From IMG/VR virus record IMGVR_UViG_3300031260_000020, positions 1 to 39,838 of that record: a stretch of DNA of 39,838 bases; one strand, given 5' to 3'. Made by a program: the position numbers and the translations under genes. The DNA is from a virus. This document shows, piece by piece, positions 1,291-39,838 of this stretch (its first letter is position 1; each line of letters starts with the position of its first letter). A model generated the notes under the pieces. That model saw only the letters and a list, made by a program, of their open reading frames with translations. It did not search any database and was not told the origin of the DNA.

Positions 1291-1833
1291 CAGCGCTTTG
1301 ATGTCACTCGCAATCTTGTTCAGCTGATTTGCAGTGAAACCCAGATCCTTGAGTGCCTGTTCAAACTCCTCTATCTTGTCGATTCCAAACTCTTCGACCA
1401 TGTCAAGACAGATCATTATCATCAGAATCGAGATGTCATTTGTCCTCTTCTCCACGGCCTTGAGATATTCGGAGTCTGTTTTGTCGTACACCATTGACCA
1501 GCCGTAGTTTGGATCGTTCTTCGCCTGATCGAGAGTGAGACCCTCCTCCATGAACTCTTTGCCAGTATTCTTGTTGATTAATCTCATGGTTTTCGGAGCC
1601 TCGGGTGCGGGGTACTTCTCGTGATACAGTTTCAGGACAGGATGATCTCCGAGTGGATAGATCTCGATCTCGGGGAACTCTTCTTTCATCTCTCCATTCT
1701 CATCAATTCGGGTAACTTTGATGACCGAGTATCCGTGAGACCTGAAGTATCCCTTCTTCGATTCATCCTTCATCATTTCTTTCAAATTAAGCCTTGACGC
1801 TTTCTGGGCGCTTGTTTTTGGCTTGTTTCCCAA
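1267..1833 (-). CDS. Tail assembly chaperone (gpG-like); true start probably the internal Met near 1776
   Basis: 188-aa ORF immediately upstream of the tape measure gene, ending in a slippery heptamer with an open -1 frame; overlaps the upstream gene if started at 1833. Confidence 0.5.
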   Translation of the reverse strand: MGNKPKTSAQKASRLNLKEMMKDESKKGYFRSHGYSVIKVTRIDENGEMKEEFPEIEIYPLGDHPVLKLYHEKYPAPEAPKTMRLINKNTGKEFMEEGLTLDQAKNDPNYGWSMVYDKTDSEYLKAVEKRTNDISILMIMICLDMVEEFGIDKIEEFEQALKDLGFTANQLNKIASDIKALDFLPSKS

Positions 1834-2872
1834 GTCTGTTCCCTCCTTTTTTGATCTGTTTCCATGCTATCTTCGCGAGCTTCTCCGGGTAGTCTCCCCA
1901 CGCCAGCTCGTCGTTCTCTATCGAGTTGGTTCTCGCCTTGATGGTTTGTGCAAATGTCGCGCACGCGTAGACCTGCTCCCATTGATCGAAGAGCGCCCAT
2001 GCCTGTGCAAGAGCAACCCACGATTCGCGGAGCCAGGGACACTCGGCCACAGACTTTAGCATCCACTCTATGACCTCACCCGCATCGACTGTCTTGTCTT
2101 GCTTGTGTCTCTGCATGAGAGCTTGCGAGATATACCGCATTGAGAGCGCCCGAAGTTGCTCAATGACCATGCGATTCTCGCCTTCCTCAATCTCTTTCGT
2201 GAGGTCAAGGTGTCTCTTGGCCTCTTCGATGGCCTCTTCAAACCTGTTGTGCATCATAAGTTCTCTGGCTCGAAGCCATGAAAGACGTTGATCTGTGGGA
2301 TCTTCGGAGACAGCCTTGTCGATGAGCTTCTGGTACTCTCTCGGTTTTGATAAATCCTGATAATGCCAGCTGTGAATATCCTCGCAATACACTTCGAGCG
2401 TCTCACCACTTCCGTGCCATGCCAAGATTTCGTGAATTGGAGACTCCCAGTGATAACCGTGCCGGACGTGGATCTTCCACTGGTACATTGAAGCCTTTGG
2501 TTTCGTGCACTTCTCATCGAACCAGCTGAACACGAAAGGCCAGCGAACGAGAGTGGCCTGCGGGTACATTTGAAAGATTTTCTCGACCTTCTTTTTCCAG
2601 CCCTTCTCAATCACTTCGTCGAGGTCAATACAGAGACAAACATCATAGTCTTCAGGCACGTTCTCAAGCGAGATGTTTCTGGCTACGTCGAATCGCCATG
2701 GCTCAACCTTAGCATGAAAGACATTGACCCCGCGTTCTTCGAGAAGCCGGACAGTGTCGTCAGTCGATCCGGTGTCGGTAACAAAAACTCCATCCGCTTC
2801 TTGGATAGAGTCATACCATCGAGGCACATTCTTGGCCTCGTTCTTGCATATCGCATACACTGCGACCTTCAA
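1787..2872 (-). CDS. Family-2 glycosyltransferase with helical/TPR-like C-terminal half
   Basis: N-terminus KVAVYAICKNEAKNVPRWYDSIQEADGVFVTDTGSTDDT and CIDLDE (DXD-like) are typical GT-A/GT2 motifs; 361 aa. Confidence 0.65.
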   Translation of the reverse strand: MKVAVYAICKNEAKNVPRWYDSIQEADGVFVTDTGSTDDTVRLLEERGVNVFHAKVEPWRFDVARNISLENVPEDYDVCLCIDLDEVIEKGWKKKVEKIFQMYPQATLVRWPFVFSWFDEKCTKPKASMYQWKIHVRHGYHWESPIHEILAWHGSGETLEVYCEDIHSWHYQDLSKPREYQKLIDKAVSEDPTDQRLSWLRARELMMHNRFEEAIEEAKRHLDLTKEIEEGENRMVIEQLRALSMRYISQALMQRHKQDKTVDAGEVIEWMLKSVAECPWLRESWVALAQAWALFDQWEQVYACATFAQTIKARTNSIENDELAWGDYPEKLAKIAWKQIKKGGNRLGKQAKNKRPESVKA

Positions 2873-2891
2873 GTTATCCCCTCCCTGTGTG

Positions 2892-3344
2892 TTACACGTC
2901 GTCGTTCCTTTCTATCTCGATCAGTGCAACCGTTCCGGTATAGTACGCTGTACCGTCTGGTGCCCTGAGTGCCTGATTGAATTGGCAGCGTTGTTCCCCT
3001 GCCGTGTCCGCAAAGACCACATAGAACCTGCCTTGATACTCCGTGCCGTCATCGTCTTGCATCGGGAACGTGAGAGTCATTGGGTTCGCGACGTTCGGTT
3101 TTGCCTTCAGAAAGTCGTGGAGCTTTGAGACTTCCTTCTGCGTTGCGACTCCGTTTTCATCCCAAGTCAGCAAAAAATACTGAAACGTCGAACCCTGTTC
3201 GGTTTCCCATTTGTCGACTATCTCCCCGCTTTCCGCATCTGTCTCTGTGGGAGCGTTCGGAGAATAAAGCCAGCTTTCGTAGTCTTTCGGTTTGAGCTGG
3301 ATTATCTCTCCTCCATACTCAAGACTAATCATAGAGATCACCAC
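2892..3344 (-). CDS. Hypothetical protein (tail module)
   Basis: 150-aa ORF, protein-like composition, no recognisable motif. Confidence 0.4.
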   Translation of the reverse strand: MVISMISLEYGGEIIQLKPKDYESWLYSPNAPTETDAESGEIVDKWETEQGSTFQYFLLTWDENGVATQKEVSKLHDFLKAKPNVANPMTLTFPMQDDDGTEYQGRFYVVFADTAGEQRCQFNQALRAPDGTAYYTGTVALIEIERNDDV

Positions 3345-4230
3345 ACTTTATGACAATGTTTTCAGTTCCGTTCAGGTAGTCCAGAGAAGCGTCCGGGTCG
3401 ATATGGCAGACTCCAAGATACTCTGTGCTCGAATCGCGAGGGTTTTCTACCTTGAGTCTGAATTTCTTGTCTCTGTATTCTTCGAGAATGTTGTCTTGAG
3501 ATTCGATGAGGTCTTTCCCCACCGAGACCGTGTATGTCTTGTTGCCCGAGACTTTCAAGGGTGCTCCGTCAACATTGAGATACCCTGTTTTCTCTTCGTT
3601 CTCGGTAACCGTCAGGTCAACGAGAGCCGGGACGGTTTCAACCGTTCCCGAGACTTCAAAATATTCAAGTGCAACAACCGGTTCTTGATATTCGACAGCG
3701 AGGTTATACTCAATTTCTATCAGTGCCTTACGCCTCGGGGCGGTAGCAAATGTCACATTGGTAGTCGTAACGGTCACGTCGGTTTCTTCGAGACCATTCA
3801 CATATGCCTTGATGTTTGATGTGCCGCTTGGTGTCTCTGAGAGAGTAAACACCGTAGTGTAACCGTCTCCTTCAAATATGTCCAATTGTTTCTGCTGATT
3901 TAGTTCAACCAGCGCGCCGTCTCTATCCGTGACAAACCCAACTCCAGCACCTATTTCTGTTGTTTGAGGAATGAGGAGCATGTATAGAACTTCATGATCT
4001 CCATCTGCCACGGTTGCCGCGCAGGTAGTCCCCACAACAGTACCGGTCACACCTCCGGTGACTTCACAGTTTCCCTTGCCAGCATACGAAAGTGTTGCAG
4101 TGTTGCTCGCAAAAGTCACTGTCTCCTTATACCAACGTCTCAGCAACTTCCAGCCGTTATCATAGTATATTTCGTCTCTTGCTTCTGAATTCCCGTAAAG
4201 TTCATAATCCAGATACATTGAATCGTTCAT
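3325..4230 (-). CDS. Putative virion structural protein with Ig-like beta-rich C-terminal region (possibly major tail protein)
   Basis: 301 aa; Thr/Val-rich segment YTTVFTLSETPSGTSNIKAYVNGLEETDVTVTTTNVTFATAP resembles Ig-like domains; located in the tail module. Confidence 0.35.
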   Translation of the reverse strand: MNDSMYLDYELYGNSEARDEIYYDNGWKLLRRWYKETVTFASNTATLSYAGKGNCEVTGGVTGTVVGTTCAATVADGDHEVLYMLLIPQTTEIGAGVGFVTDRDGALVELNQQKQLDIFEGDGYTTVFTLSETPSGTSNIKAYVNGLEETDVTVTTTNVTFATAPRRKALIEIEYNLAVEYQEPVVALEYFEVSGTVETVPALVDLTVTENEEKTGYLNVDGAPLKVSGNKTYTVSVGKDLIESQDNILEEYRDKKFRLKVENPRDSSTEYLGVCHIDPDASLDYLNGTENIVIKCGDLYD

Positions 4231-4268
4231 AGATTCACCTCCAGTAGAGGTTCAAGATATTTGCGTCA

Positions 4269-4958
4269 TTATCTTAGAAATTCACTCAGTTCTTTCTCTG
4301 ATGCGTCTTTTCCATATATCCTGTGAAATTCTCTGTGACACTTAGGGCAAAGTAAAATACCGTTACTGGGTTCACACATTAGTTCTGCATAAAATCTAAC
4401 TGGTTTGATGTGGTGAACGTGCATCCTGCTTTTTGAAGTACCACACTTTTGACATCGATAATTGTCTCTTTCTCTAACTGCTTTCAGAAAGTCTTTGAAT
4501 TTCTTTGTTGCTCTAATTCGTTCAAATTTAGAAGAGATTCCGCCTTTCCAATTTGGATGTTCTGCACCTTTTCTTCTTAGCTTTTTAGCAGATTCGGCCG
4601 CCTTTTCTTTTTGCAAACAACCGCAACTTTTAGTCTTCCCATTTTCCAACATCCAATTCATAACTTCAATTTGGTTACCACACTCACAATTGCATATCGA
4701 ATAACCCGTCCTTGAAGAAGGAGCAATAACTGTGAGCCTACCGTATTTTGATCCAACTTCAAGTTCCTTCCCCAGTTTTTGTTTTAATGCACACTTTTGG
4801 CACATATGATGACCGTTTTTCACTAACCTGCTATAAGCAACGATTCTCACTTCTTCACAGACTGGGCATTGAACCTCCACCAACTTGGTTGATGATGGTT
4901 TCAACTCGCTAACTGGTATTTGTCTTCCTCTGTATTTAACAGTTTTCGTCAGTATCAC
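4269..4958 (-). CDS. HNH endonuclease with N-terminal Cys-rich zinc-finger-like region (GTG start)
   Basis: C-terminal motif YRCQKCG...HVHHIKP...NGILLCPKCH is a classic HNH signature; RBS GAAGGAG 8 nt upstream of GTG. Confidence 0.8.
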   Translation of the reverse strand: MILTKTVKYRGRQIPVSELKPSSTKLVEVQCPVCEEVRIVAYSRLVKNGHHMCQKCALKQKLGKELEVGSKYGRLTVIAPSSRTGYSICNCECGNQIEVMNWMLENGKTKSCGCLQKEKAAESAKKLRRKGAEHPNWKGGISSKFERIRATKKFKDFLKAVRERDNYRCQKCGTSKSRMHVHHIKPVRFYAELMCEPSNGILLCPKCHREFHRIYGKDASEKELSEFLR

Positions 4959-5008
4959 CGCATCATCTCCTTCAATATATTATATCACATAATGCGGTAA
5001 GACGAATG

Positions 5009-5078
5009 ATTATTCAGATTCCAATAGAAAGGTCCTGCATTTGAGCTGTTATTCCAATTGCTGCCCTGTTGAAAGCAG
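5009..5078 (-). repeat. DGR-like template repeat (TR), non-coding, between the target gene stop and the HNH gene
   Basis: 70-bp match to 5206..5275; all 13 mismatches fall at TR positions that are A on the coding (minus) strand; in the target frame TR encodes AAT/AAC-rich ...CFQQGSNWNNSSNAGPFYWNLNN. Confidence 0.75.
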
Positions 5079-5145
5079 GCTCCTTCAATCACAGACCAAA
5101 CTTGTATGTTAGTGTACCAAAATTGTTACAAACCGGCGAAAACCA

Positions 5146-6504
5146 TTAAACCGTAGGAACATAGCAGGCGCGCGCCCCGATGCTCCGATACCGATAAGCG
5201 AACGAATAAGCCAGATACCAATAGAAAGGCCCCGCATATGAGCCGTTATACCAATGGCCGCCCCGTAGAAAGCAGTTCGTACTATAACTAGACGGTGCAT
5301 AAAGATGGTCACATACGAACTTGCTTGCAGATGGAACATCTGTTTGGATACTTTTCGGCAGGAACAGACCTTTAGAGTCAGGAACCCAATAAAAATTTTT
5401 CAGGTATCCGTTTGTAACCGGAGGAGAGCACGGTATCTGAGTATAGCCGGCCAGTGTATTGTTGTATGGCCTATCGGGAGCTACATAATAACCATCAGAC
5501 TTTATGCCTCCACCGTCTGTAAACTCCCACATGTCGCCCCACCAGTTTTCCAGCCCGAATAGAGAAACAGCCTCAAGGTTTGTACCGCCTGTGTCCACTG
5601 CTCCGAGTGAAGCCGTCGCACCTGTAAGCTCTGATTCGTTCCCTGTGCCAGATGCTTTTCCTGTTATGCCCTGTCCTATCATCGCCTGCGCATTGAAATT
5701 TGCATATTTGATAAGATAGAGAAGATTAACCATTCCGGCCTGTTTCAAATCAACAAGTCCCCATCCGGTACCCCTGTTCTCTGCCATGGTGCGAAATTCC
5801 GGTAAGGTTTGATTTGATTTTGGCTTTCTTCCCGATACCGAACGCAGCATGTGGTTTGGTAAATCACCAGTAGCTATCAGTATCGGAGTCGAACCGTCTG
5901 ACGGGTCTTCTATCCATGTACTATCTGAGATTCTTTGCACTGTACCTTTATATGCTCCTAAATATATTTCTTCGAGTATTTGCCCGCCAATTACAAAGCA
6001 GTCAAATGGTACAAACCCAGGCAGCGGTTCAGGTGAAAAATACATTCTTACTTTTTCGTCTTCCGGTGAGTAATATGTGAAATAATAGGCTTTCTTGAAC
6101 CTTGATACCACATCGCCGGCCGTGCCATCTTCAATAAATCCTGGATCACCAAAAGATGCGACCCAATTTCCAGCACTATCGAGAGTCATTCTTTCTATGC
6201 TCGCAAATGGTTCGATAAGATTAAAATCGCTAGAACCCATCCCGACGGCTTTTCCTATCCTGGTAAGCACGGGAGAGCTATCACTGAGATCCCATTCCAC
6301 ACCATATGCATCATCTGGGATATTATGAGCTATCAGCTCTCCTATTCTTGCTCCAGTCAAACCGGAATGTTTGCCATAGAAATGAGGAATATAACCGCAC
6401 CGCCCTTTGTTTGTGCGATTCAGCATTCTTGTTTGAACTTCCTGCTCTGTGAGTTCTTCTATGCTGAGACTGATCTTTTTCTTCTGCCATTTTCTGTATG
6501 CCAT
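5146..6504 (-). CDS. DGR-type variable target protein; C-terminal C-type-lectin/FGE-sulfatase-like fold; putative receptor-binding/tail protein
   Basis: C-terminus ENWWGDMWEFTDGGG...FLRGGHWYNGSYAGPFYWY...RSIGARACYV resembles FGE/CLec domains of DGR variable proteins; carries the VR at its 3' end. Confidence 0.7.
   Translation of the reverse strand: MAYRKWQKKKISLSIEELTEQEVQTRMLNRTNKGRCGYIPHFYGKHSGLTGARIGELIAHNIPDDAYGVEWDLSDSSPVLTRIGKAVGMGSSDFNLIEPFASIERMTLDSAGNWVASFGDPGFIEDGTAGDVVSRFKKAYYFTYYSPEDEKVRMYFSPEPLPGFVPFDCFVIGGQILEEIYLGAYKGTVQRISDSTWIEDPSDGSTPILIATGDLPNHMLRSVSGRKPKSNQTLPEFRTMAENRGTGWGLVDLKQAGMVNLLYLIKYANFNAQAMIGQGITGKASGTGNESELTGATASLGAVDTGGTNLEAVSLFGLENWWGDMWEFTDGGGIKSDGYYVAPDRPYNNTLAGYTQIPCSPPVTNGYLKNFYWVPDSKGLFLPKSIQTDVPSASKFVCDHLYAPSSYSTNCFLRGGHWYNGSYAGPFYWYLAYSFAYRYRSIGARACYVPTV
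5206..5275 (-). repeat. DGR-like variable repeat (VR) inside the 3' end of the target gene
   Basis: Encodes ...NCFLRGGHWYNGSYAGPFYWYLAY; differs from TR only where TR has adenine; followed by a GC-only stretch GGGGCGCGCGCC (IMH-like) absent next to TR. Confidence 0.75.
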
Positions 6505-6549
6505 TTTCTGCCTCCCAGTTCAAAGAATGAAGGGGCCGGAGCCCCTCCA

Positions 6550-6786
6550 TCAGAGAGTTTTTTCATCAATTACTTCTTTGGTTCCAAGACTCTTCACGAT
6601 TGCCTCTTTCAGTTCTTCGAGAACAACATTCGTAGCAATACACTGGAGAGTAACCTTGTTGTTCTCAATGAACTTGTCTGATTCGATCGTGATTGGACCT
6701 TTAATTGTGGTTTTTGTAGGATTCTCGAACTTTGCTAACAGTTTGCCATTCCCATCGTACAACTCAATCTCATAAACGATGTTCAT
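6550..6786 (-). CDS. Hypothetical protein
   Basis: 78-aa minus-strand ORF between the putative major tail gene and the DGR target. Confidence 0.3.
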   Translation of the reverse strand: MNIVYEIELYDGNGKLLAKFENPTKTTIKGPITIESDKFIENNKVTLQCIATNVVLEELKEAIVKSLGTKEVIDEKTL

Positions 6787-6794
6787 AACATCAC

Positions 6795-7355
6795 CTACGA
6801 TGTGATGTCGGTTGGGGCGCCCACAATCTGCATCCTGAGAGTAACCTGAGCTTTGTTACTGGTGCTGAAGGTCGCAGAAATCGGTCTGACATATTTATAG
6901 CTCTTTCCAAACGCCTTCGAAGTTCCAGCGTTGTTGAACAAGACTTTCATACCGATTGTGAACCAGCTAGTAGCAAGATTTGCAGATACGGTAGTGCCGT
7001 CGATACTCTTCTTCAAGTATGCAGAGCCATCATTCGTGCTAACAAGCGCGGTGGCTCCGTTGCTCTCTTTGTGATTGTTGAACCATTCGTTCAGAGCATA
7101 CTTGTTAGTTGCTACATCATCATCGTTGATGTCGACTGTTATTGAGAACTCTGGCAGATTGACAGTGTCGTCACCCTCTTCTATGCTGTTGAAAACACCT
7201 TGAGGTGCATAACCTTCGGCCGGAGCATCAACGACAGGTTCGGGCAGTTCCGGAACGTCAGCATACCCGGTGATGGTCTCGGTGAATGGTGTGGTAGGTG
7301 TACCATCAAACAGCGAGATGGTCACATGTTTCTTTCTAAGATATGGTCTTCCCAT
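6795..7355 (-). CDS. Putative major tail (tube) protein
   Basis: 186 aa, follows head-tail joining genes; assigned by position and size only. Confidence 0.4.
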   Translation of the reverse strand: MGRPYLRKKHVTISLFDGTPTTPFTETITGYADVPELPEPVVDAPAEGYAPQGVFNSIEEGDDTVNLPEFSITVDINDDDVATNKYALNEWFNNHKESNGATALVSTNDGSAYLKKSIDGTTVSANLATSWFTIGMKVLFNNAGTSKAFGKSYKYVRPISATFSTSNKAQVTLRMQIVGAPTDITS

Positions 7356-7373
7356 GAGAAGTTCCTCCTTTGT

Positions 7374-7787
7374 TTACTCGATAAATTCATAATACACAGT
7401 GATGGCTCGCACTGCGTAGTTGCTTAATGTTGATTGCTGAGAGAGTTCATATCTGGAGATCTGAAGCTCTCCAAGCTTAACTGTTGGTTTTCCACCTACA
7501 TAATCCATGACAGGAATGCTACTTGAGTCTTCGATTGCCGCTGTGAGAGTGCCGATGATAGTATCAAGCGTACTTACGCTCTTTGAATGTACGAGTAGTT
7601 GAGTAAAGTCGTACTGATACGCTTTTCTATCATCCTGTGCCCTCCCCATCGACGTTTGAAGTTCGATGAAGCTATCCTCAGTCATATTCTCATTCTTTCG
7701 ATCTATGTACCATGTCCCCGAGCTGTACTTTCCTGAAAAGTACATTCTCAGAGACGCTTGAATGTTTCGGTAGAGAGCGGCTGTCAT
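7374..7787 (-). CDS. Putative tail terminator / tail completion protein
   Basis: 137-aa ORF in the canonical position between neck and tail tube genes. Confidence 0.35.
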   Translation of the reverse strand: MTAALYRNIQASLRMYFSGKYSSGTWYIDRKNENMTEDSFIELQTSMGRAQDDRKAYQYDFTQLLVHSKSVSTLDTIIGTLTAAIEDSSSIPVMDYVGGKPTVKLGELQISRYELSQQSTLSNYAVRAITVYYEFIE

Positions 7788-10967: not shown

Positions 10968-11273
10968 TTAGAAAAACTTGTTTATGTTATCTGTTGCTTC
11001 TGAAAGTGATTCAGCAATCTTCTCTGCAAGCTGGTCAATTTCTTTCTCAGCCCCATCTAAGTTCAAAGTTACGCCCAAACAGTTTGGATGCTCCGGTTCT
11101 TTTACTTCCGGTAGCTTGTTCCAGTTGTAGAACACTTCCTTCATTTTCAGATACAGCTCTGCCGAATACTCTGCTCTTCTCTCACCCAGAGCTTTGACTA
11201 TCTCGTGCATTTCATGTGCATTTAGTTCAAGTGTCACCTTTCTCAAACTTACCCCTCCTTCTGTTTCTTCCAT
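10968..11273 (-). CDS. Hypothetical protein
   Basis: 101-aa ORF. Confidence 0.3.
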   Translation of the reverse strand: MEETEGGVSLRKVTLELNAHEMHEIVKALGERRAEYSAELYLKMKEVFYNWNKLPEVKEPEHPNCLGVTLNLDGAEKEIDQLAEKIAESLSEATDNINKFF

Positions 11274-13003
11274 TCGCTGTATGTGATATAGTCGCTTATT
11301 CCTTTACCCTGAATCATTCTCGTTCTAGGTTCGCTGCCTTCAAACACGAATATAGTTGTGCACCGGCAATTGTGTGTTATAATACCTTTGTAGATGTCTT
11401 TGTCATTTGAAGACGCTAAATACCATCCGACTTGAGTTTGGAGGTTATAGATTTGGCCGCTAAAAGGGAAGACGTCAATATCAACGATCTTATCGCTAAA
11501 TATCTTCAAGGCTTTTCTGTCAAAGCCCTTTCCGAGTTTTTTAATATTTCCAGAACCGCTATCATCCCTAGACTCAGAAGAGCAGGTATCAGACCTCGCA
11601 ATAGAAGTGAGGCCATGTATCTCAGAATGGCCCAAACCACTTCTGAAGAAAAAGCTCGCCTTGCCGAAAAGGCTCACGATGCTGTTCGTGGCAAGCCTAA
11701 ATCCTTCAAAGCACTTGCTAAGCAAGCCAAAAAGAGGCAACTTACACATTCTCAAGTGGGCAAAGGAGAATATTTGCTTGCTTCTTGGCTTGAAGAAAGA
11801 GGACTTTCTCCGGTTCTTCAAGAAGCCGTTGGCAAGTACAACATCGACATTTCCTGCTGCCCCGTCGCCGTGGAATTGCTTGTCAACGCCTCGAACCCTT
11901 TTGCTAGGGCAACTGATAGAAAGAAAATTGAATACCTTACCAACCGAAATTGGACGGTTATTTATGTTTGGGTTACTAAAAGACACTTTCTTTCTGAAGA
12001 GGCCGCAGAGTATATCGTCTCCCTTTTTGAGAGAACACATTCCGACCCAACCCTTAGGGGTAGCTATTGGGTGATTAGGGGTAGCGGCGAACTCTATGCC
12101 ACTAGCTGTTCTAATTCTAATTAATGTACCTGAATACTCTCTCTTTGTGGCGGCTTCAATCTTGTTGCTACATATTATGGTGTCTTCGGGAATACAGTTG
12201 ATGTCTTCAGACGCGACTCCGAACATCCCCGGGGCCTTAGTCTTGAGACCTCGAATGTGAAAGTATCCGTCCTTATCTTCGATCTGACCGTCTAGCGCTC
12301 TGTGAGTGTCACGAGTCTTGCTGTCGAGTGTGGCCACCCACATTCTCTTGGCTTCGACCCCTTTCTCCTGCATCTTCTGCATGGCTTCGAGCTGGGCCTC
12401 TTCCTTGCATCTGTGGCTCTCAGTCCATATGATTCTGGTGGCTTTGACATAGTTATTCTCAAGCGCGGCCTTTAACCGATCCGCAGTCTTGAAGTAACTT
12501 TCACCTTTAATGAGACCTTGCGTGACTTCCTGACGGATTCGCCAGAGGATCTCCTGACGGTTCTTTTCAAGAATCTCGGTGAGTGTGAGGCCCGAGACTG
12601 GATTCTGAATAGCCTTCTTGATGTAGTCTTTCGGGAGCTGATACCATCTGAGATTGATTCCTGTCGCCTGTTCTGCGATCCAGCCCATGCGGTTGTAGCC
12701 TTCTGAATAAACCTCAAATAAAAGAGTCTGGACCTCTCTCGCCTGAGTACGTGAGAGTTCTAGAATCGCTGCGTCGAGATCTTTCTGCATCTTTCTCAGA
12801 CGGTCGTACTTCTGCATCTCGGCCAGCGTGAGCTTGCCGCTTCTTGAGAAAGTCTTGTAGTATTTCTCGAGCTGCTCTTTCGTGGCCTTGAGCGATTCGC
12901 GGTAGGCTTTCTCGAGTTCCTTCAACTGGCGCTTCGTGAATCCGTCGTACCATCGCTCGAAGTCGTCGAAAGCGCCCTTAATTGTTAGCGCCATCGCCCT
13001 CAT
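11249..13003 (-). CDS. Head morphogenesis (minor head) protein interrupted by an intein
   Basis: Follows the portal gene; contains Hint-type boundaries: ...SEDIN/CIPEDTIICSN...TPNHPI... and ...DIYKGIITHN/CRCTT. Confidence 0.65.
   Translation of the reverse strand: MRAMALTIKGAFDDFERWYDGFTKRQLKELEKAYRESLKATKEQLEKYYKTFSRSGKLTLAEMQKYDRLRKMQKDLDAAILELSRTQAREVQTLLFEVYSEGYNRMGWIAEQATGINLRWYQLPKDYIKKAIQNPVSGLTLTEILEKNRQEILWRIRQEVTQGLIKGESYFKTADRLKAALENNYVKATRIIWTESHRCKEEAQLEAMQKMQEKGVEAKRMWVATLDSKTRDTHRALDGQIEDKDGYFHIRGLKTKAPGMFGVASEDINCIPEDTIICSNKIEAATKREYSGTLIRIRTASGIEFAATPNHPIATPKGWVGMCSLKKGDDILCGLFRKKVSFSNPNINNRPISVGKVFNFLSISCPSKRVRGVDKQFHGDGAAGNVDVVLANGFLKNRRKSSFFKPRSKQIFSFAHLRMCKLPLFGLLSKCFEGFRLATNSIVSLFGKASFFFRSGLGHSEIHGLTSIARSDTCSSESRDDSGSGNIKKLGKGFDRKALKIFSDKIVDIDVFPFSGQIYNLQTQVGWYLASSNDKDIYKGIITHNCRCTTIFVFEGSEPRTRMIQGKGISDYITYSEWKKQKEG
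11369..12196 (-). mobile_element. Intein (about 276 aa) within the head morphogenesis gene
   Basis: N-terminal Cys then block B TPNHP; C-terminal ITHN followed by Cys+1; central region is low-complexity on the sense strand. Confidence 0.6.
11432..12124 (+). CDS. Antisense ORF inside the intein: HTH plus PD-(D/E)xK (Vsr/DUF559-like) endonuclease-like protein (TTG start)
   Basis: 230 aa with protein-like composition; FNISRTAIIPRLRRAGI (HTH) and GEYLLASWLEERGL...YNIDISCCPVAVELL...NRNWTVIYVW resemble Vsr/DUF559-type nucleases. Confidence 0.4.
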   Translation: MSLEVIDLAAKREDVNINDLIAKYLQGFSVKALSEFFNISRTAIIPRLRRAGIRPRNRSEAMYLRMAQTTSEEKARLAEKAHDAVRGKPKSFKALAKQAKKRQLTHSQVGKGEYLLASWLEERGLSPVLQEAVGKYNIDISCCPVAVELLVNASNPFARATDRKKIEYLTNRNWTVIYVWVTKRHFLSEEAAEYIVSLFERTHSDPTLRGSYWVIRGSGELYATSCSNSN

Positions 13004-14340: not shown

Positions 14341-15585
14341 TTACCTCCATGCTGAGTATCCGGCTGTGATTTTTCTTGGTCTCGTGAATATTCCGTACCT
14401 GAGAGCGTCCATGCAGTGGTCGTTCTCTTTCAGCGGCTTATCTTCACCACGTTCGGCCGCCTTGTTATCCCAGGCGTAACCATAGAACTCTTTGATCGTT
14501 TCCTTGCAGGAAGAATGAATCTTGATGTGACCTTTATCCAACTTATTGGCCACGGTGCGGATCCCATCAAGAACGTCGTTTTTAGCCTGGGTGACTTTGA
14601 ACCCGTGCTGCTGAAGTTCCACGATGAAAGAAGCCGCCGAGGGATCGACTATGATCTCCGTAGTCCGCTTCTCGAATTCGTTCCTCTGGAGAAAGACTTC
14701 GAGATCTTCTCGATACTGGGTGTCGGTCTTCTGTTTCCCTGTCTCTCTCCCTGAATGGTAGTATTCCGAGAGAATGAAGGTATCTTCTCCAGCGTCGCCC
14801 ATCGCCAGAAAGACCGTGGGATTTCCGGTCCCGTAGTCGCAGGCGACGTACTTTCGACTCAGAGAGCCCGGAAGGCTTGCCACCACGTGTTTCTCCTCTG
14901 AGAACATATCGTAGATGATCCCCTCTGCTATGACCCACTGACCGAGAATGAACCTGCGATACCACATACCCGAGTAAGCTTGTTTCAGTTCTTCCTTGTA
15001 TCTTTCATCCAGGGTGAGGTTGTCCTCGAGGTTGAAGTGCCAGTGACGATAGCCCTTCGTTCCCGCCTGGTCGATATATTCCTTCTTGATGAAATGGTTC
15101 GGATTGTCCGGGTTCGTGGTCCAGATGGCCTTCGCGCCAGGCAGGGACATTCTGTTGATTGCCTGCTTGATGAACGTTTCGTGGTGAAGCGTGGCCTCGT
15201 CTGCGTACCAGCCCGCTATCGTCATTCCTCTGATCGCTTCTTCCGAAGTGACCTTGTCAGCTCCGCGACAATAACAGACTTTATCGCCGGCTCGAGAATG
15301 AAAGATTAACTGCGGACCACCTTTTGGTGACTTCTGATATGTAGCCCTGCGGTCTCCAACAGTTTTAACCAAATCTTTAACCACGTTTCGGTACAGCGAG
15401 TCTGTGGATTCGCCGCTCATGAGAAACTGGTCGTATGGATTCGTGAGAACAAAGTACAACCATGCCACGTTGGCCGCGATTGTCTTTCCCGACCTGACAG
15501 ACCCCTCGAGAATATTGATGAAAGAATCGAAGCCATCTATAACATCAAGCTGTTTTGAGCTGAATGGTTTCCAGTCGCAACTCAT
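14341..15585 (-). CDS. terL: Terminase large subunit
   Basis: Walker A-like GSVRSGKT, Walker B-like WYADEAT, C-terminal nuclease-like ENDHCMDALRY. Confidence 0.85.
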   Translation of the reverse strand: MSCDWKPFSSKQLDVIDGFDSFINILEGSVRSGKTIAANVAWLYFVLTNPYDQFLMSGESTDSLYRNVVKDLVKTVGDRRATYQKSPKGGPQLIFHSRAGDKVCYCRGADKVTSEEAIRGMTIAGWYADEATLHHETFIKQAINRMSLPGAKAIWTTNPDNPNHFIKKEYIDQAGTKGYRHWHFNLEDNLTLDERYKEELKQAYSGMWYRRFILGQWVIAEGIIYDMFSEEKHVVASLPGSLSRKYVACDYGTGNPTVFLAMGDAGEDTFILSEYYHSGRETGKQKTDTQYREDLEVFLQRNEFEKRTTEIIVDPSAASFIVELQQHGFKVTQAKNDVLDGIRTVANKLDKGHIKIHSSCKETIKEFYGYAWDNKAAERGEDKPLKENDHCMDALRYGIFTRPRKITAGYSAWR

Positions 15586-17139: not shown

Positions 17140-17670
17140 TCAAGTCCCTTCTTTGTAGATTTTAAGATAGTCCATAGTCAATTCAAATAATCTTTCTACA
17201 TCAACCCTCACATTGCTTCCATCATCCACCAAGAGATCTTCTCCTGTGTCTTGGAAGATTCGCTTGATGTTTCTCCTCACGCCTTCGTAGTCATCAATAA
17301 GTTGGCGGGCAAACCAGATAAATGCCTTCCTAGTATTAGGAGTTAAATTATCACTTGCCCTAATTATTCTATGGCAAAAATAATGACAGTTCGGGCAAAC
17401 AAGCAGGAAATTGTCAAACGTATTCCCTCCGCCTTGAGAATATGGTATGAAGTGATGTGTTTGAAGCATTGTTGAAAATTCTCTTGGAGGTACAAATCCA
17501 CAAATGTCGCATTGTGCTGTTCGAGTTTTCAATCTAAGACTTTTGTAATGTCGGATACTCTTCACGTATATTTTCCTATTTCTTTCGTCTTCCTTTGGTA
17601 TTTCTACGTGTTTGCCTATTTTAATCGACAGAAGCAAATCTTCTACACTCATCCAACAACCTCCTCGCAA
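17140..17670 (-). CDS. HNH endonuclease (terminase-associated)
   Basis: CDICGF...HHFIPYSQGGGNTFDNFLLVCPNCH HNH motif; located upstream of the terminase genes. Confidence 0.8.
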   Translation of the reverse strand: MRGGCWMSVEDLLLSIKIGKHVEIPKEDERNRKIYVKSIRHYKSLRLKTRTAQCDICGFVPPREFSTMLQTHHFIPYSQGGGNTFDNFLLVCPNCHYFCHRIIRASDNLTPNTRKAFIWFARQLIDDYEGVRRNIKRIFQDTGEDLLVDDGSNVRVDVERLFELTMDYLKIYKEGT

Positions 17671-39000: not shown

Positions 39001-39838
39001 TAATCCCGATGACTGCAAGTATACCTAGTGCGTTGTCTATCCAGGACTGATCGAAGTTGTCAACGAATCCACTCACAAGGAACTTCGCTGGGATCTCGAA
39101 TATCTCTTGCGCAAGCTCGACGCCAAGATCAAATTTCTTCGAGATTGATTCAGTCTCTCCGATTTCTTTGATTGTTGCGCTCATCTTCTCAAGTGCCGAG
39201 TTCGTAGTATCAAGATATTTCTGAGAGTCACCACCCAGAAGCCCCGTGAACCCAGCTCCAATCGTGGCAATACTGTTATAGACTTCTTCAGCTAGAAGCT
39301 GAATAGTATTAAGCAAGCCCTTTGTATCTTCGACTTCTGACTTGAATTTCTCAGTCAAGCCAAGCGTCAAGATAGATGCGGTGATTCCAATCACAGGACT
39401 CCCGGTTGCAAGGGTAATAAGGCCACCCCAAGTAATGACGCTGAGAAGTTTTCCTTTGAAAGTCTCAGCTTCATTCTCTCCGAACACTATCTTCGCCGGT
39501 ATCTGAAGAATGTTTGAGCCAAGATCCACAAGCCCCTGCATGAATTCTTTAACATCTGTGGCTTTGGTGAGTTCTTCCCATGAAGCCTTGACGTCACCGA
39601 ACGCCTTCTTTGTATTCTCTCCAAAGTCATCAACATTGATGCCCATACTCTTGAGAACACCATTAATAGCTTCACCAGCTTGTGATACTGTGCCTCTAAT
39701 ACCCAGCCAGTCATGATCCCACGCAACACGAAGAGTGTATAGACCCGCAATCAAGAGTGTGGGCCAAGAAAATATTGTCTTGAACACGCCCACGATCAGG
39801 CCGCCCCCGGTAACAACTATCTGTGAGAGCAAGCTCCA
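36017..39838 (-). CDS. Tail tape measure protein, C-terminal 1271 aa; N-terminus continues at 1..999 across the junction; contains a lytic-transglycosylase-like segment and a Gly-rich linker
   Basis: Frame open to the window edge; segment LAYAESKYLIGAKGGEGRGAFQFEPIG...AWNRGFGN resembles SLT-domain motifs (near 37800-38100); GGGGGSGG linker near 38400; largest gene, after the chaperone frameshift site. Confidence 0.8.
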   Translation of the reverse strand, partial: WSLLSQIVVTGGGLIVGVFKTIFSWPTLLIAGLYTLRVAWDHDWLGIRGTVSQAGEAINGVLKSMGINVDDFGENTKKAFGDVKASWEELTKATDVKEFMQGLVDLGSNILQIPAKIVFGENEAETFKGKLLSVITWGGLITLATGSPVIGITASILTLGLTEKFKSEVEDTKGLLNTIQLLAEEVYNSIATIGAGFTGLLGGDSQKYLDTTNSALEKMSATIKEIGETESISKKFDLGVELAQEIFEIPAKFLVSGFVDNFDQSWIDNALGILAVIGITKFLGGSWRLAVGLALISDVILGDDVSSNGLVNSAVKALEAGAATWMITKSGTLGLGVSLVVAGWETGKEFGNWLVDAGIGDSWDQWLKDTLGDFYTDTIAGLKTETFLDQLNASGIYIGMTILAGLKWPFDKMLDFGAWVWEAVKNTALTIYEAGLEIGNQLFEGIKSFFSFGWLQELLGLGVKKPSGGGGGGSGGFENFVPAGGGESIRFKKESMAYPELEGMYAMAGFPISGMEIRTTPLSKEITDMIDRMIATAKQLDAYSGISSDPTTIITPAMEKLTFDLINALNQSLLDPTVVASLAYAESKYLIGAKGGEGRGAFQFEPIGIEQAKKWFPTNWDYETAATDTVYSTLAAEKTLDWLMDSFGSLRDAIIAWNRGFGNTQNWIAGGEDLSTLPDATKILLTNFMVEFENLINGDWSSLNDELLAHIAEVADAVNFFVENTPEVIAKSFVGDPKTFDVMGTAAEEQAVTQKETVITLENLFVEAQAANSYLNAIANRLSGIRDLLWQRLPVTAGMASGGYISGAGSPTDDLIPAMLSDGEFVVNAKSTEKWLPFLKAINAQGLSAGGLAGLKKQIKGFATGTATQIDVGSVGGGQLTWWDIILNTLTSAVGDYAETAKKDFGMIKNALGDLLKTIGLDIDAPFTELDKLTSQFQELEKPSDDVFEGFFLSIAETRDRLSSISDVFGETEIKRISRQMSFLDSAMSDLEKQFTNGEIELGEYTERVVYLRNISRDLGNSLNDLKKKIERSSIVGDSSEIFKVDENTGELVSVFANLRPGMEGLTDVMGNLATAGELFAVGLLNQVVNLEAINMLLNPITTILTGVMEILGPIINLLKPLGDALISIGRVFASTFNLFGAGLLILQPFFKALGWLGATISFVADQLVLFVDGIFVWLSGLPFIGGLFSPLLSEDQRANMGRSISERMEDYELPQSSTGQTFQAGSSQHITNNYHFEFRGNDILTEDDESARRFADLIYKNLRDRGVELQVG
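39698..39838. repeat. Second copy of the 141-bp terminal repeat
   Basis: Identical to 1..141; implies a unit genome length of about 39697 bp. Confidence 0.9.

Follow-up and report, generated by a model that had tools for sequence, protein, structure and literature searches.

A free-standing HNH endonuclease gene in the reverse transcriptase slot of a phage diversity-generating retroelement: a probable homing-endonuclease cassette

We analyzed a stretch of viral DNA of 39,838 nucleotides (IMG/VR record IMGVR_UViG_3300031260_000020, positions 1 to 39,838; referred to here as the window), which contains parts of a diversity-generating retroelement (DGR) next to a gene for an HNH endonuclease. 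DGRs are, to our knowledge, the only known natural system for targeted protein hypermutation in prokaryotes and their viruses. In the canonical phage DGR, of the type found in Bordetella phage BPP-1, a target gene with its variable repeat (VR) is followed by an optional avd gene, the template repeat (TR), and the gene for the reverse transcriptase (RT). The window is a complete phage genome of ~39.7 kb, either circularly assembled or terminally redundant, as evidenced by an exact terminal overlap of 141 bp (1-141 = 39698-39838), and nearly all of its genes are carried on the minus strand. The order of features on this strand at the locus of interest is (i) the target gene (6504..5146) with the VR, (ii) a TR remnant (5078..5009), (iii) a cassette with the HNH gene (4987..4267), and (iv) an RT remnant (4265..4227).

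The target gene (5146..6504; minus strand, as are all features of the locus described below) encodes a phage tail protein of 452 aa that matches PHROG 5302 (tail protein; 5.6e-71). Its homologues share 83-87% identity in relatives of the phage and 27% in the canonical DGR locus L008. The VR (5275..5167) is found at the C-terminal end of the protein, inside the last 43 codons of the gene, and comprises two parts. The first part (5206..5275) is still paired with the TR remnant (5009..5078); the two differ at 13 of 70 nt, and all 13 mismatches are at TR adenines, with none at the 47 non-A positions. Given a composition of 23 A in the 70 nt of the TR, random placement of the mismatches would put all of them on A with a probability of 2.4e-8. 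The adenine-specific TR/VR pair is thus real, and a chance duplication, which the preliminary description had named as a possible objection, does not account for it. The second part of the VR (5167..5205) contains a GC-rich run, GGGGCGCGCGCC (5178..5167), which resembles an initiation of mutagenic homing (IMH) element and has no counterpart in the TR of the window. This run is identical in the VRs of all relatives except L002 (GGAGCGCGCGCC), and the VRs of the relatives vary among themselves mainly at TR-A positions.

The TR remnant is adenine rich and non-coding (its translation reads CFQQGSNWNNSSNAGPFYWNLNN) and represents the 5' 70 nt of a TR that was originally ~111-124 nt long, being collinear with the TR of the sister allele L027 up to CTGAATAAT. 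Past TR position 70, the TR of the window is out of register with the VR, which runs 39 nt further to the GGGGCGCGCGCC run. The pairing between IMH and its TR counterpart (IMH*) is lacking in the window, where the VR retains GGGGCGCGCGCC and the TR stops before the corresponding point; the L027 TR has GGAGCACGCACC there. Between the stop codon of the target gene and the TR lies a conserved, non-coding spacer of 67 nt (5079..5145). The block comprising this spacer and the TR remnant (5145..4988) shows 92-97% identity among the TR-bearing relatives, compared to 76-87% in the flanking coding DNA, which suggests a conserved cis element, namely, the 5' part of the DGR RNA or a target-recognition structure. 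On its other side, the TR remnant is followed by a 21-nt junction segment, CATTCGTCTTACCGCATTATG (4988..5008), which has no in-register match to the VR or to the L027 TR (indels and non-A mismatches). This segment is common to the relatives L005, L001, and L030 and to a locus with unrelated flanks, L034, and represents the left end of the HNH cassette or else a scrambled piece of the TR.

The preliminary description had placed an HNH endonuclease open reading frame (ORF) of 229 aa, with its own ribosome-binding site (RBS) and GTG start codon, directly downstream of the TR, 50 bp past its end. These coordinates were confirmed: TR and VR match cleanly as far as 5009, at a distance of exactly 50 nt from the GTG (4958..4956), and AAGGAG (4972..4967) is located 8 nt upstream of the latter. 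The ORF (4269..4958) encodes an N-terminal zinc ribbon, a CxCxCG...SCGC module, and a C-terminal HNH domain, and it matches PF01844 (31.1 bits; cutoff, 21.4) and PF13391 (26.9 bits; cutoff, 21), as well as many PHROG HNH families. The catalytic His/Asn/His residues and the zinc CxxC pairs of HNH endonuclease domains are present, and C169, C172, H182, H183, N199, C204, C207, H208, and H212 are invariant in 14 homologues; a protein database search retrieved 1023 homologues in total. An extended -10-like sequence, TGATATAAT (4987..4979), the RBS, and the ORF form a compact cassette (4267..4987), which occupies the place of the TR 3' end, the spacer between TR and RT, and the RT and which has a GC content of 38% versus 46% for the genome. 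A TGnTATAAT upstream of the HNH gene is also present in the loci L034, L035, and L039. A consensus promoter scan did not call TGATATAAT, there being no -35 hexamer, and we consider it a candidate promoter proposed from its sequence. The genome contains a second, unrelated HNH ORF (17670..17140, minus strand; 176 aa; Pfam HNH, 1.5e-9) ~1.6 kb upstream of the gene for the large subunit of the terminase (15585..14341), which is probably of the packaging-associated type.

An RT gene was not detected in the window. The YxDD motif in an RT context is absent from all six frames of the whole window; a Pfam scan of ORFs of at least 270 aa, with overlapping shadow ORFs left out, returned other assignments or no match; and a tblastn search of the window with a related DGR RT (L008) gave no match below E = 0.5. 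The same search found no RT sequence inside the HNH ORF, where the preliminary description had advised looking for remnants (4269..4958); a remnant was found directly after the HNH stop codon. It consists of the last 12 codons and the stop of an RT gene (RKYLEPLLEVNL*; 4227..4265), as evident from the alignment with the 3' end of the L027 RT (RKYLEPLMEVKL*), and begins 3 nt past the HNH stop. Both the RBS (GGAGGTG) and the ATGA start/stop overlap of the gene that follows (3325..4230; 301 aa), the conserved right-hand neighbor of the DGR slot, lie in this remnant, which is retained in all RT-less relatives and in L034. These 12 codons probably survived because they hold the RBS of the next gene. 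A DGR-clade RT is thus not encoded in this complete genome and is encoded in the sister allele L027; the locus of the window is a DGR remnant and not a DGR.

Searching with the target protein and with an exact word from the TR yielded close relatives that form a series of alleles at this slot. (i) In L027, the C terminus of the target is followed by the same spacer, a full TR, a spacer of ~120 nt, an intact RT of 334 aa, and a homologue (302 aa) of the downstream gene. The L027 TR (~111-124 nt) differs from its own VR at 21 A sites and at no non-A site over 111 nt and ends with the IMH*-like GGAGCACGCACC opposite the GGGGCGCGCGCC of the VR. The RT contains the IGNYTSQ and YMDD motifs, matches RVT_1 (7e-17) and the PHROG RT family (1.6e-115), and fills exactly the interval held by the HNH cassette in the window. 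(ii) L005, L001, and L030 have neither RT nor HNH gene; they carry the same TR stump and the 21-nt segment, followed by 58 bp with a terminator-like hairpin. (iii) L004, also without RT and HNH gene, has just 22 nt of the TR left, with the junction TTTGCCAACG. (iv) L002 and L003 lack RT, HNH gene, and TR. (v) L021, without RT and HNH gene, has a longer, clean TR fused straight to the RT remnant. The RT is kept in one of the seven alleles of this phage group (L027), and the order of target, TR, and RT is also found in the more distant loci L008/L024 and L026.

The HNH cassette shows a presence/absence polymorphism with conserved flanks: it is present in the window and missing from every close relative (L027, L005/L001/L030, L021, L004, L002, and L003), which have in its place 58, ~16, 5, or 0 bp or the RT gene. 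The proposal of the preliminary description that the HNH gene replaced or displaced the RT agrees with these data, since synteny with L027 puts the RT exactly in the interval of the cassette and the 3' end of the RT gene survives next to it. The comparison of a target-TR-RT with a target-TR-HNH arrangement, which had been suggested as a check, is provided by L027 and the window, whose downstream genes share 93% nucleotide identity. The TR is an orphan, as had been proposed, given the complete genome without RT, and is in addition truncated, without its 3' third and IMH*. Nucleotide identity of the downstream gene is 90-91% with L004 and L002 and 75-76% with L005, L021, and L003. The C terminus of the target shows the opposite trend, being nearest to that of L005 (84%) and distant from that of L027 (77%). 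The DGR slot appears to be a recombination boundary, with mosaicism across it. Concerted changes of TR and VR were sought as a trace of retrohoming after RT loss; the window has a single such site (position 36, discussed below). In L021 (1975-2062), TR and VR share derived non-A states (GGGTGGC and GCGTG) that are not present in other TRs and VRs, so transfer from TR to VR appears to have continued after the TR lineages split, with the RT of L021 probably lost independently.

One explanation for this allele series is coincidence: the RT was lost by ordinary deletion, and a generic phage HNH gene without DGR specificity later landed in the dispensable scar. In favor of this idea, alleles lacking both genes exist (L005/L001/L030, L021, L004, L002, and L003), L021 resembles a clean deletion without cassette scar, and free-standing HNH genes are very common in phages, the genome of the window having a second one. 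We consider coincidence unlikely in view of the following comparison of the window with L034, the contig that encodes the closest homologue of the HNH protein (P0001; 89% aa identity), and of the recurrence of this arrangement in other phages.

The window and L034 share 80-95% identity from ~5040 to ~4257, that is, from the 3' part of the TR remnant through the HNH gene to the start of the RT remnant. The flanks on both sides show 30-55% identity, which is the random level; the downstream genes are unrelated, and the target proteins share 32% identity. The HNH gene is thus more conserved than its flanks and discordant with them, and its junction is common to both loci despite the unrelated surroundings. 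The L034 TR differs from its own VR by A-only mismatches plus one C/T (read by eye), which suggests that the cassette block recombined into a different DGR. From this shared block we infer horizontal transfer, and the cassette of the window, which is foreign and probably mobile, was probably acquired in this way. The ratio of dN to dS between the two HNH copies is 0.084 (dS, 0.59), and this low value indicates that the HNH protein is maintained by selection.

L034 also bears on the alleles that have no HNH gene. It contains a 58-bp terminator segment between the HNH stop codon and the RT remnant, and the same segment stands alone in L005. The L005-type allele would most simply be an HNH allele that has lost the ORF, which is flanked by short ATAATG-like repeats; the window allele, in turn, seems to have lost the 58 bp, which are flanked by ACGYAAA repeats. 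The L004 junction TTTGCCAACG corresponds to the end of the same 58-bp segment, and L005/L001/L030 and L004 are best explained as descendants of an allele with the cassette. Most relatives that lack both RT and HNH gene therefore carry cassette-derived scars, and the presence in L005-type alleles and L004 of pieces that flank the HNH gene in L034 argues against coincidence. We had also considered independent deletions that share a hotspot at their right-hand end. This idea was largely dropped, as L034 shows the junctions of L005, L004, and the window to be nested derivatives of one cassette allele.

To place the cassette in a wider context, we used protein database searches and contig look-ups, from which the informative relatives came. 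Among HNH homologues with 39-89% identity, seven lineages, including the window, have a truncated TR and no RT within the contig sequence examined. Apart from L034, these are L035 (70% HNH identity; all TR/VR mismatches at A, as read by eye), L039/L040 (45%; 9 of 9 mismatches at A; a target without detectable similarity to that of the window), L045/L046 (40%; 10 of 12 at A; an Avd gene upstream of the TR that matches NCBIfam DivGenRetAVD, 2.2e-19), L041 (46%; 5 of 5 at A; HNH gene inverted), and L153 (44%; 10 of 12 at A). Two or three further lineages of this clade are found beside an intact or partial DGR RT. In L044 (837-3976) and L154 (921-4205), the HNH gene is inverted and separates the 3' end of the target from an intact TR-RT; the DNA of both is AT rich, and their TR/VR mismatch spectrum is mixed. 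L149 has, 1.4 kb upstream of the HNH gene, an RT of which the start of the contig leaves only the C-terminal half. As a control, none of 64 loci with similarity to the HNH domain only has an A- or T-specific repeat within 1.5 kb, and no such repeat was found within this distance of more distant homologues of full-length type (26-33% identity). The preliminary description had conceded that its idea would fail if the HNH gene were found at this position independently of a DGR; the HNH relatives found there are accompanied by DGR parts. In L149, a paralogous repeat of 405 nt (599-1003 and 2616-3020; 74% identity) flanks the HNH gene, and an identical HNH protein is encoded on three contigs of ~45 kb with differing upstream genes.

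A second allele series was identified in an unrelated, Avd-type DGR. L123 contains a target (87% identical to that of L046), avd, a full TR, an RT, and a gene for a 198-aa protein; L046 has the HNH gene where L123 has the RT; and L124 is empty, lacking avd, TR, and RT. The junctions of L046 resemble those of the window in that the TR breaks off directly after its run of Asn codons, before the IMH-like part, and ~45 nt of the RT 3' end with the RBS of the next gene are kept. The same replacement with equivalent endpoints has thus arisen independently in an unrelated DGR. Coincidence accounts poorly for this finding and for a clade with seven lineages beside a truncated TR and two or three beside a DGR RT, compared to 0 of 64 control loci.

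Taken together, these data make it probable, in our assessment, that the HNH ORF (4958..4269) is a free-standing homing-endonuclease gene on a compact foreign cassette that occupies the RT slot of a tail-protein DGR and belongs to a clade found repeatedly beside DGR TRs. Nuclease activity of the protein, its recognition site, the homing step, and the inactivity of the DGR are what we infer from the sequence comparisons. According to this homing-endonuclease reading, events may have proceeded as follows. (i) The ancestral arrangement would have been that of L027, with target/VR, TR, spacer, RT, and next gene. (ii) The nuclease would act on DGR alleles that have an RT, with the cut in or close to the TR 3' end or the RT. 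(iii) Repair from an HNH-bearing genome would copy the cassette in and delete the RT, by which the cassette would have taken the place of the spacer, of the 3' third of the TR with its IMH*, and of the whole RT except for the final 12 codons. The equivalent positions of the junctions in the two independent replacements lend indirect support to such site-specific cleavage and copying. (iv) Later, as in the usual cycle of homing endonucleases, the HNH ORF would be lost and the TR would erode further, leaving RT-less targets with frozen VRs. The DGR of the window would then be dead, its VR frozen in the last mutagenized state and its TR stump a recent fossil. A frozen DGR is indicated by the identical VRs of L005 and L030, RT-less contigs that are ~1% divergent elsewhere (L001 has the same VR and adds little, since it is almost identical to L005 throughout), and the loss of IMH* and spacer points in the same direction.

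A broader proposal is that the entire clade (at least 39% aa identity) consists of homing endonucleases specialized on DGR cassettes, with a recognition site in the one stretch of a DGR that has to remain constant (the 3' part of the TR and the start of the spacer/RT), and that, as a selfish element, the clade spreads among otherwise unrelated phages by turning DGRs with an RT into RT-less target-TR-HNH loci, silences hypermutation, and is a major cause of DGR decay in phages. We give this proposal an even chance of being correct.

A number of observations weigh against these interpretations. RT loss does not always need the HNH gene, as L021 carries no cassette scars, shows no trace of an HNH gene, and probably represents an independent deletion, which is what its TR-RT fusion looks like; L002 and L003 are ambiguous. 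Because RT loss of the L021 type occurs, the causal role of the HNH gene in the lineage of the window itself is deduced from the shared scars. The L005-type allele may be either a former HNH allele or an empty site that the HNH gene entered later. Replacement of the RT is frequent and not obligatory, given the intact RT next to the HNH gene in L044 and L154 and the partial RT in L149. The clade members L036/37, L043, and L151/152 show no sign of a DGR, the flanks of L038 and L047 are too short to judge the DGR context, and the contexts were sampled for only ~15 of the >1000 HNH homologues.

A different view of the locus is that of a working DGR without RT of its own, in which the host or a co-resident element provides an RT that copies the TR in trans, and the HNH protein is an accessory nuclease that, for example, nicks the VR/IMH to prime cDNA integration, similar to the En domain of group II introns, retroelements that combine the action of an HNH nuclease with that of an RT. 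This would agree with TR and VR differing only at adenines, without drift at the 47 non-A positions, with the HNH gene adjoining the TR in almost every DGR-linked case and being under strong purifying selection, and with its coexistence with an intact RT in L044 and L154. In addition, position 36 is an A in both TR and VR of the window and a G in the other TRs and VRs, and a profile search of solved structures weakly matched a group II intron maturase RT (chain 6me0; E, 1.8e-3) through its HNH domain. However, the shared A is a single synonymous site that is explained equally well by ancestral polymorphism. Furthermore, the TR of the window lacks the 3' third, IMH*, and the whole spacer that separates TR and RT in L027, and the TR-RT spacer of BPP-1 is reportedly required for the priming of cDNA. 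No RT is encoded in the complete genome, L005 and L030 have identical VRs although they diverge elsewhere, and the orientation of the HNH gene to the TR varies, being inverted in L041, L044, and L154. Unlike in RT-HNH fusions of group II introns, the HNH domain of the window is part of a stand-alone ORF of 229 aa, and RT and HNH gene are alternative alleles in two lineages. We therefore regard an RT-less but working DGR as very unlikely.

The nearest solved structure by sequence profile is the HNH endonuclease of the thermophilic phage GVE2 (PDB 5h0m; E, 2.5e-5), which we take to be a packaging-type nicking enzyme that is not linked to DGRs. The HNH core aligns (profile positions 112-209), but the match is remote, and the N-terminal zinc-ribbon and CxCxCG modules of the window protein are not covered. 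Is the HNH gene of the DGR slot of the packaging-associated type, working with the terminase of cos-type phages and located in the tail module by chance? In favor of this view, one of the matched PHROG families carries the annotation terminase small subunit, the match being confined to the HNH domain. The gene is ~10 kb away from the terminase gene, a different HNH ORF is the one upstream of the packaging genes, and absence from all close relatives implies that the gene is not essential; a packaging role is thus hardly conceivable.

A homing-endonuclease gene is also suggested by the comparison with known free-standing HNH homing-endonuclease genes of phages, such as T4 mobE and those of the I-HmuI type in SPO1/SP82; annotated HNH genes of Staphylococcus, Bacillus, and Vibrio phages were among the genes compared. 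As in these cases, the HNH gene of the window is small and intergenic, has its own expression signals and an intact HNH motif, is present or absent among near-identical genomes, is low in GC, and is part of a shared block with discordant flanks. Whereas the known genes are located beside or inside conserved genes for DNA metabolism or structural proteins, the clade of the window is tied to DGR TRs, and its arrival removes the RT. With respect to DGRs of the BPP-1 type, the locus has in common a tail-protein target with a VR at the 3' end, adenine-specific TR/VR mismatches, and a GC-rich IMH-like element, and the canonical order is seen in L027, L008, and L026 (target, TR, RT) and in L123 (target, avd, TR, RT). 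It differs in the missing RT, the 70-nt TR without IMH* and spacer, and the HNH gene in the RT slot. Avd is absent from the lineage of the window, and the 67 nt between target stop codon and TR leave no room for it.

HNH homing endonucleases and the decay of DGRs are known already. The new element is a clade of homing endonucleases tied to the TR and in place of the RT, which we did not find in the searchable literature; a search for DGRs associated with a homing endonuclease, an HNH gene, or an orphan TR returned nothing relevant. Surveys detect DGRs by way of the RT and therefore mostly miss remnants without an RT, along with whatever drives DGR destruction. Should homing endonucleases of one lineage invade the TR/RT junction specifically, this would represent a new ecological niche for these enzymes and a concrete mechanism for the patchy distribution of DGRs and their frequent loss among close phage relatives. 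It would also make available natural pairs of receptor-binding proteins in the "on" and the "frozen" state and, possibly, an enzyme that recognizes template-repeat DNA as a nuclease. For annotation, it follows that a clean adenine-specific TR/VR pair is no proof of an active DGR.

Further searches added little to this set of loci. A blastn search of 3300-7400 of the window against GenBank phages gave no match, and scanning viral contigs with a profile of aligned target proteins found no further loci. A scan of genome contigs with the HNH alignment returned only distant relatives with similarity to the HNH domain only, with neither a clue to the host nor a prophage copy, and a single-sequence HNH scan of viral contigs gave only matches of 44% over the motif. 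A VR/TR pair of the FYWNLNN type that shares the TR motif was observed in an unrelated, AT-rich phage (L029, 5700-7470; IMGVR_UViG_3300031867_000163), with no RT detected in 7.5 kb. L029 has almost no long ORFs under genetic code 11, which may reflect stop codon recoding.

The remaining gene content of the window includes terminase, portal, MuF-like protein, scaffold, capsid, tail, tape-measure, and lysis genes and a RecT/YqaJ replication module. The MuF-like head protein (11249-13003, minus strand; 584 aa) contains an insertion at residues 274-524 that matches Pfam Intein_splicing below the cutoff (E, 1e-4) and may be an intein, that is, a further selfish element in this genome. The tape-measure gene spans both ends of the window. 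Between this gene and the DGR slot, the tail module contains a gene for a family-2 glycosyltransferase (1787-2872, minus strand; PHROG beta-1,4-glycosyltransferase, 5e-80), which is conserved in all relatives.

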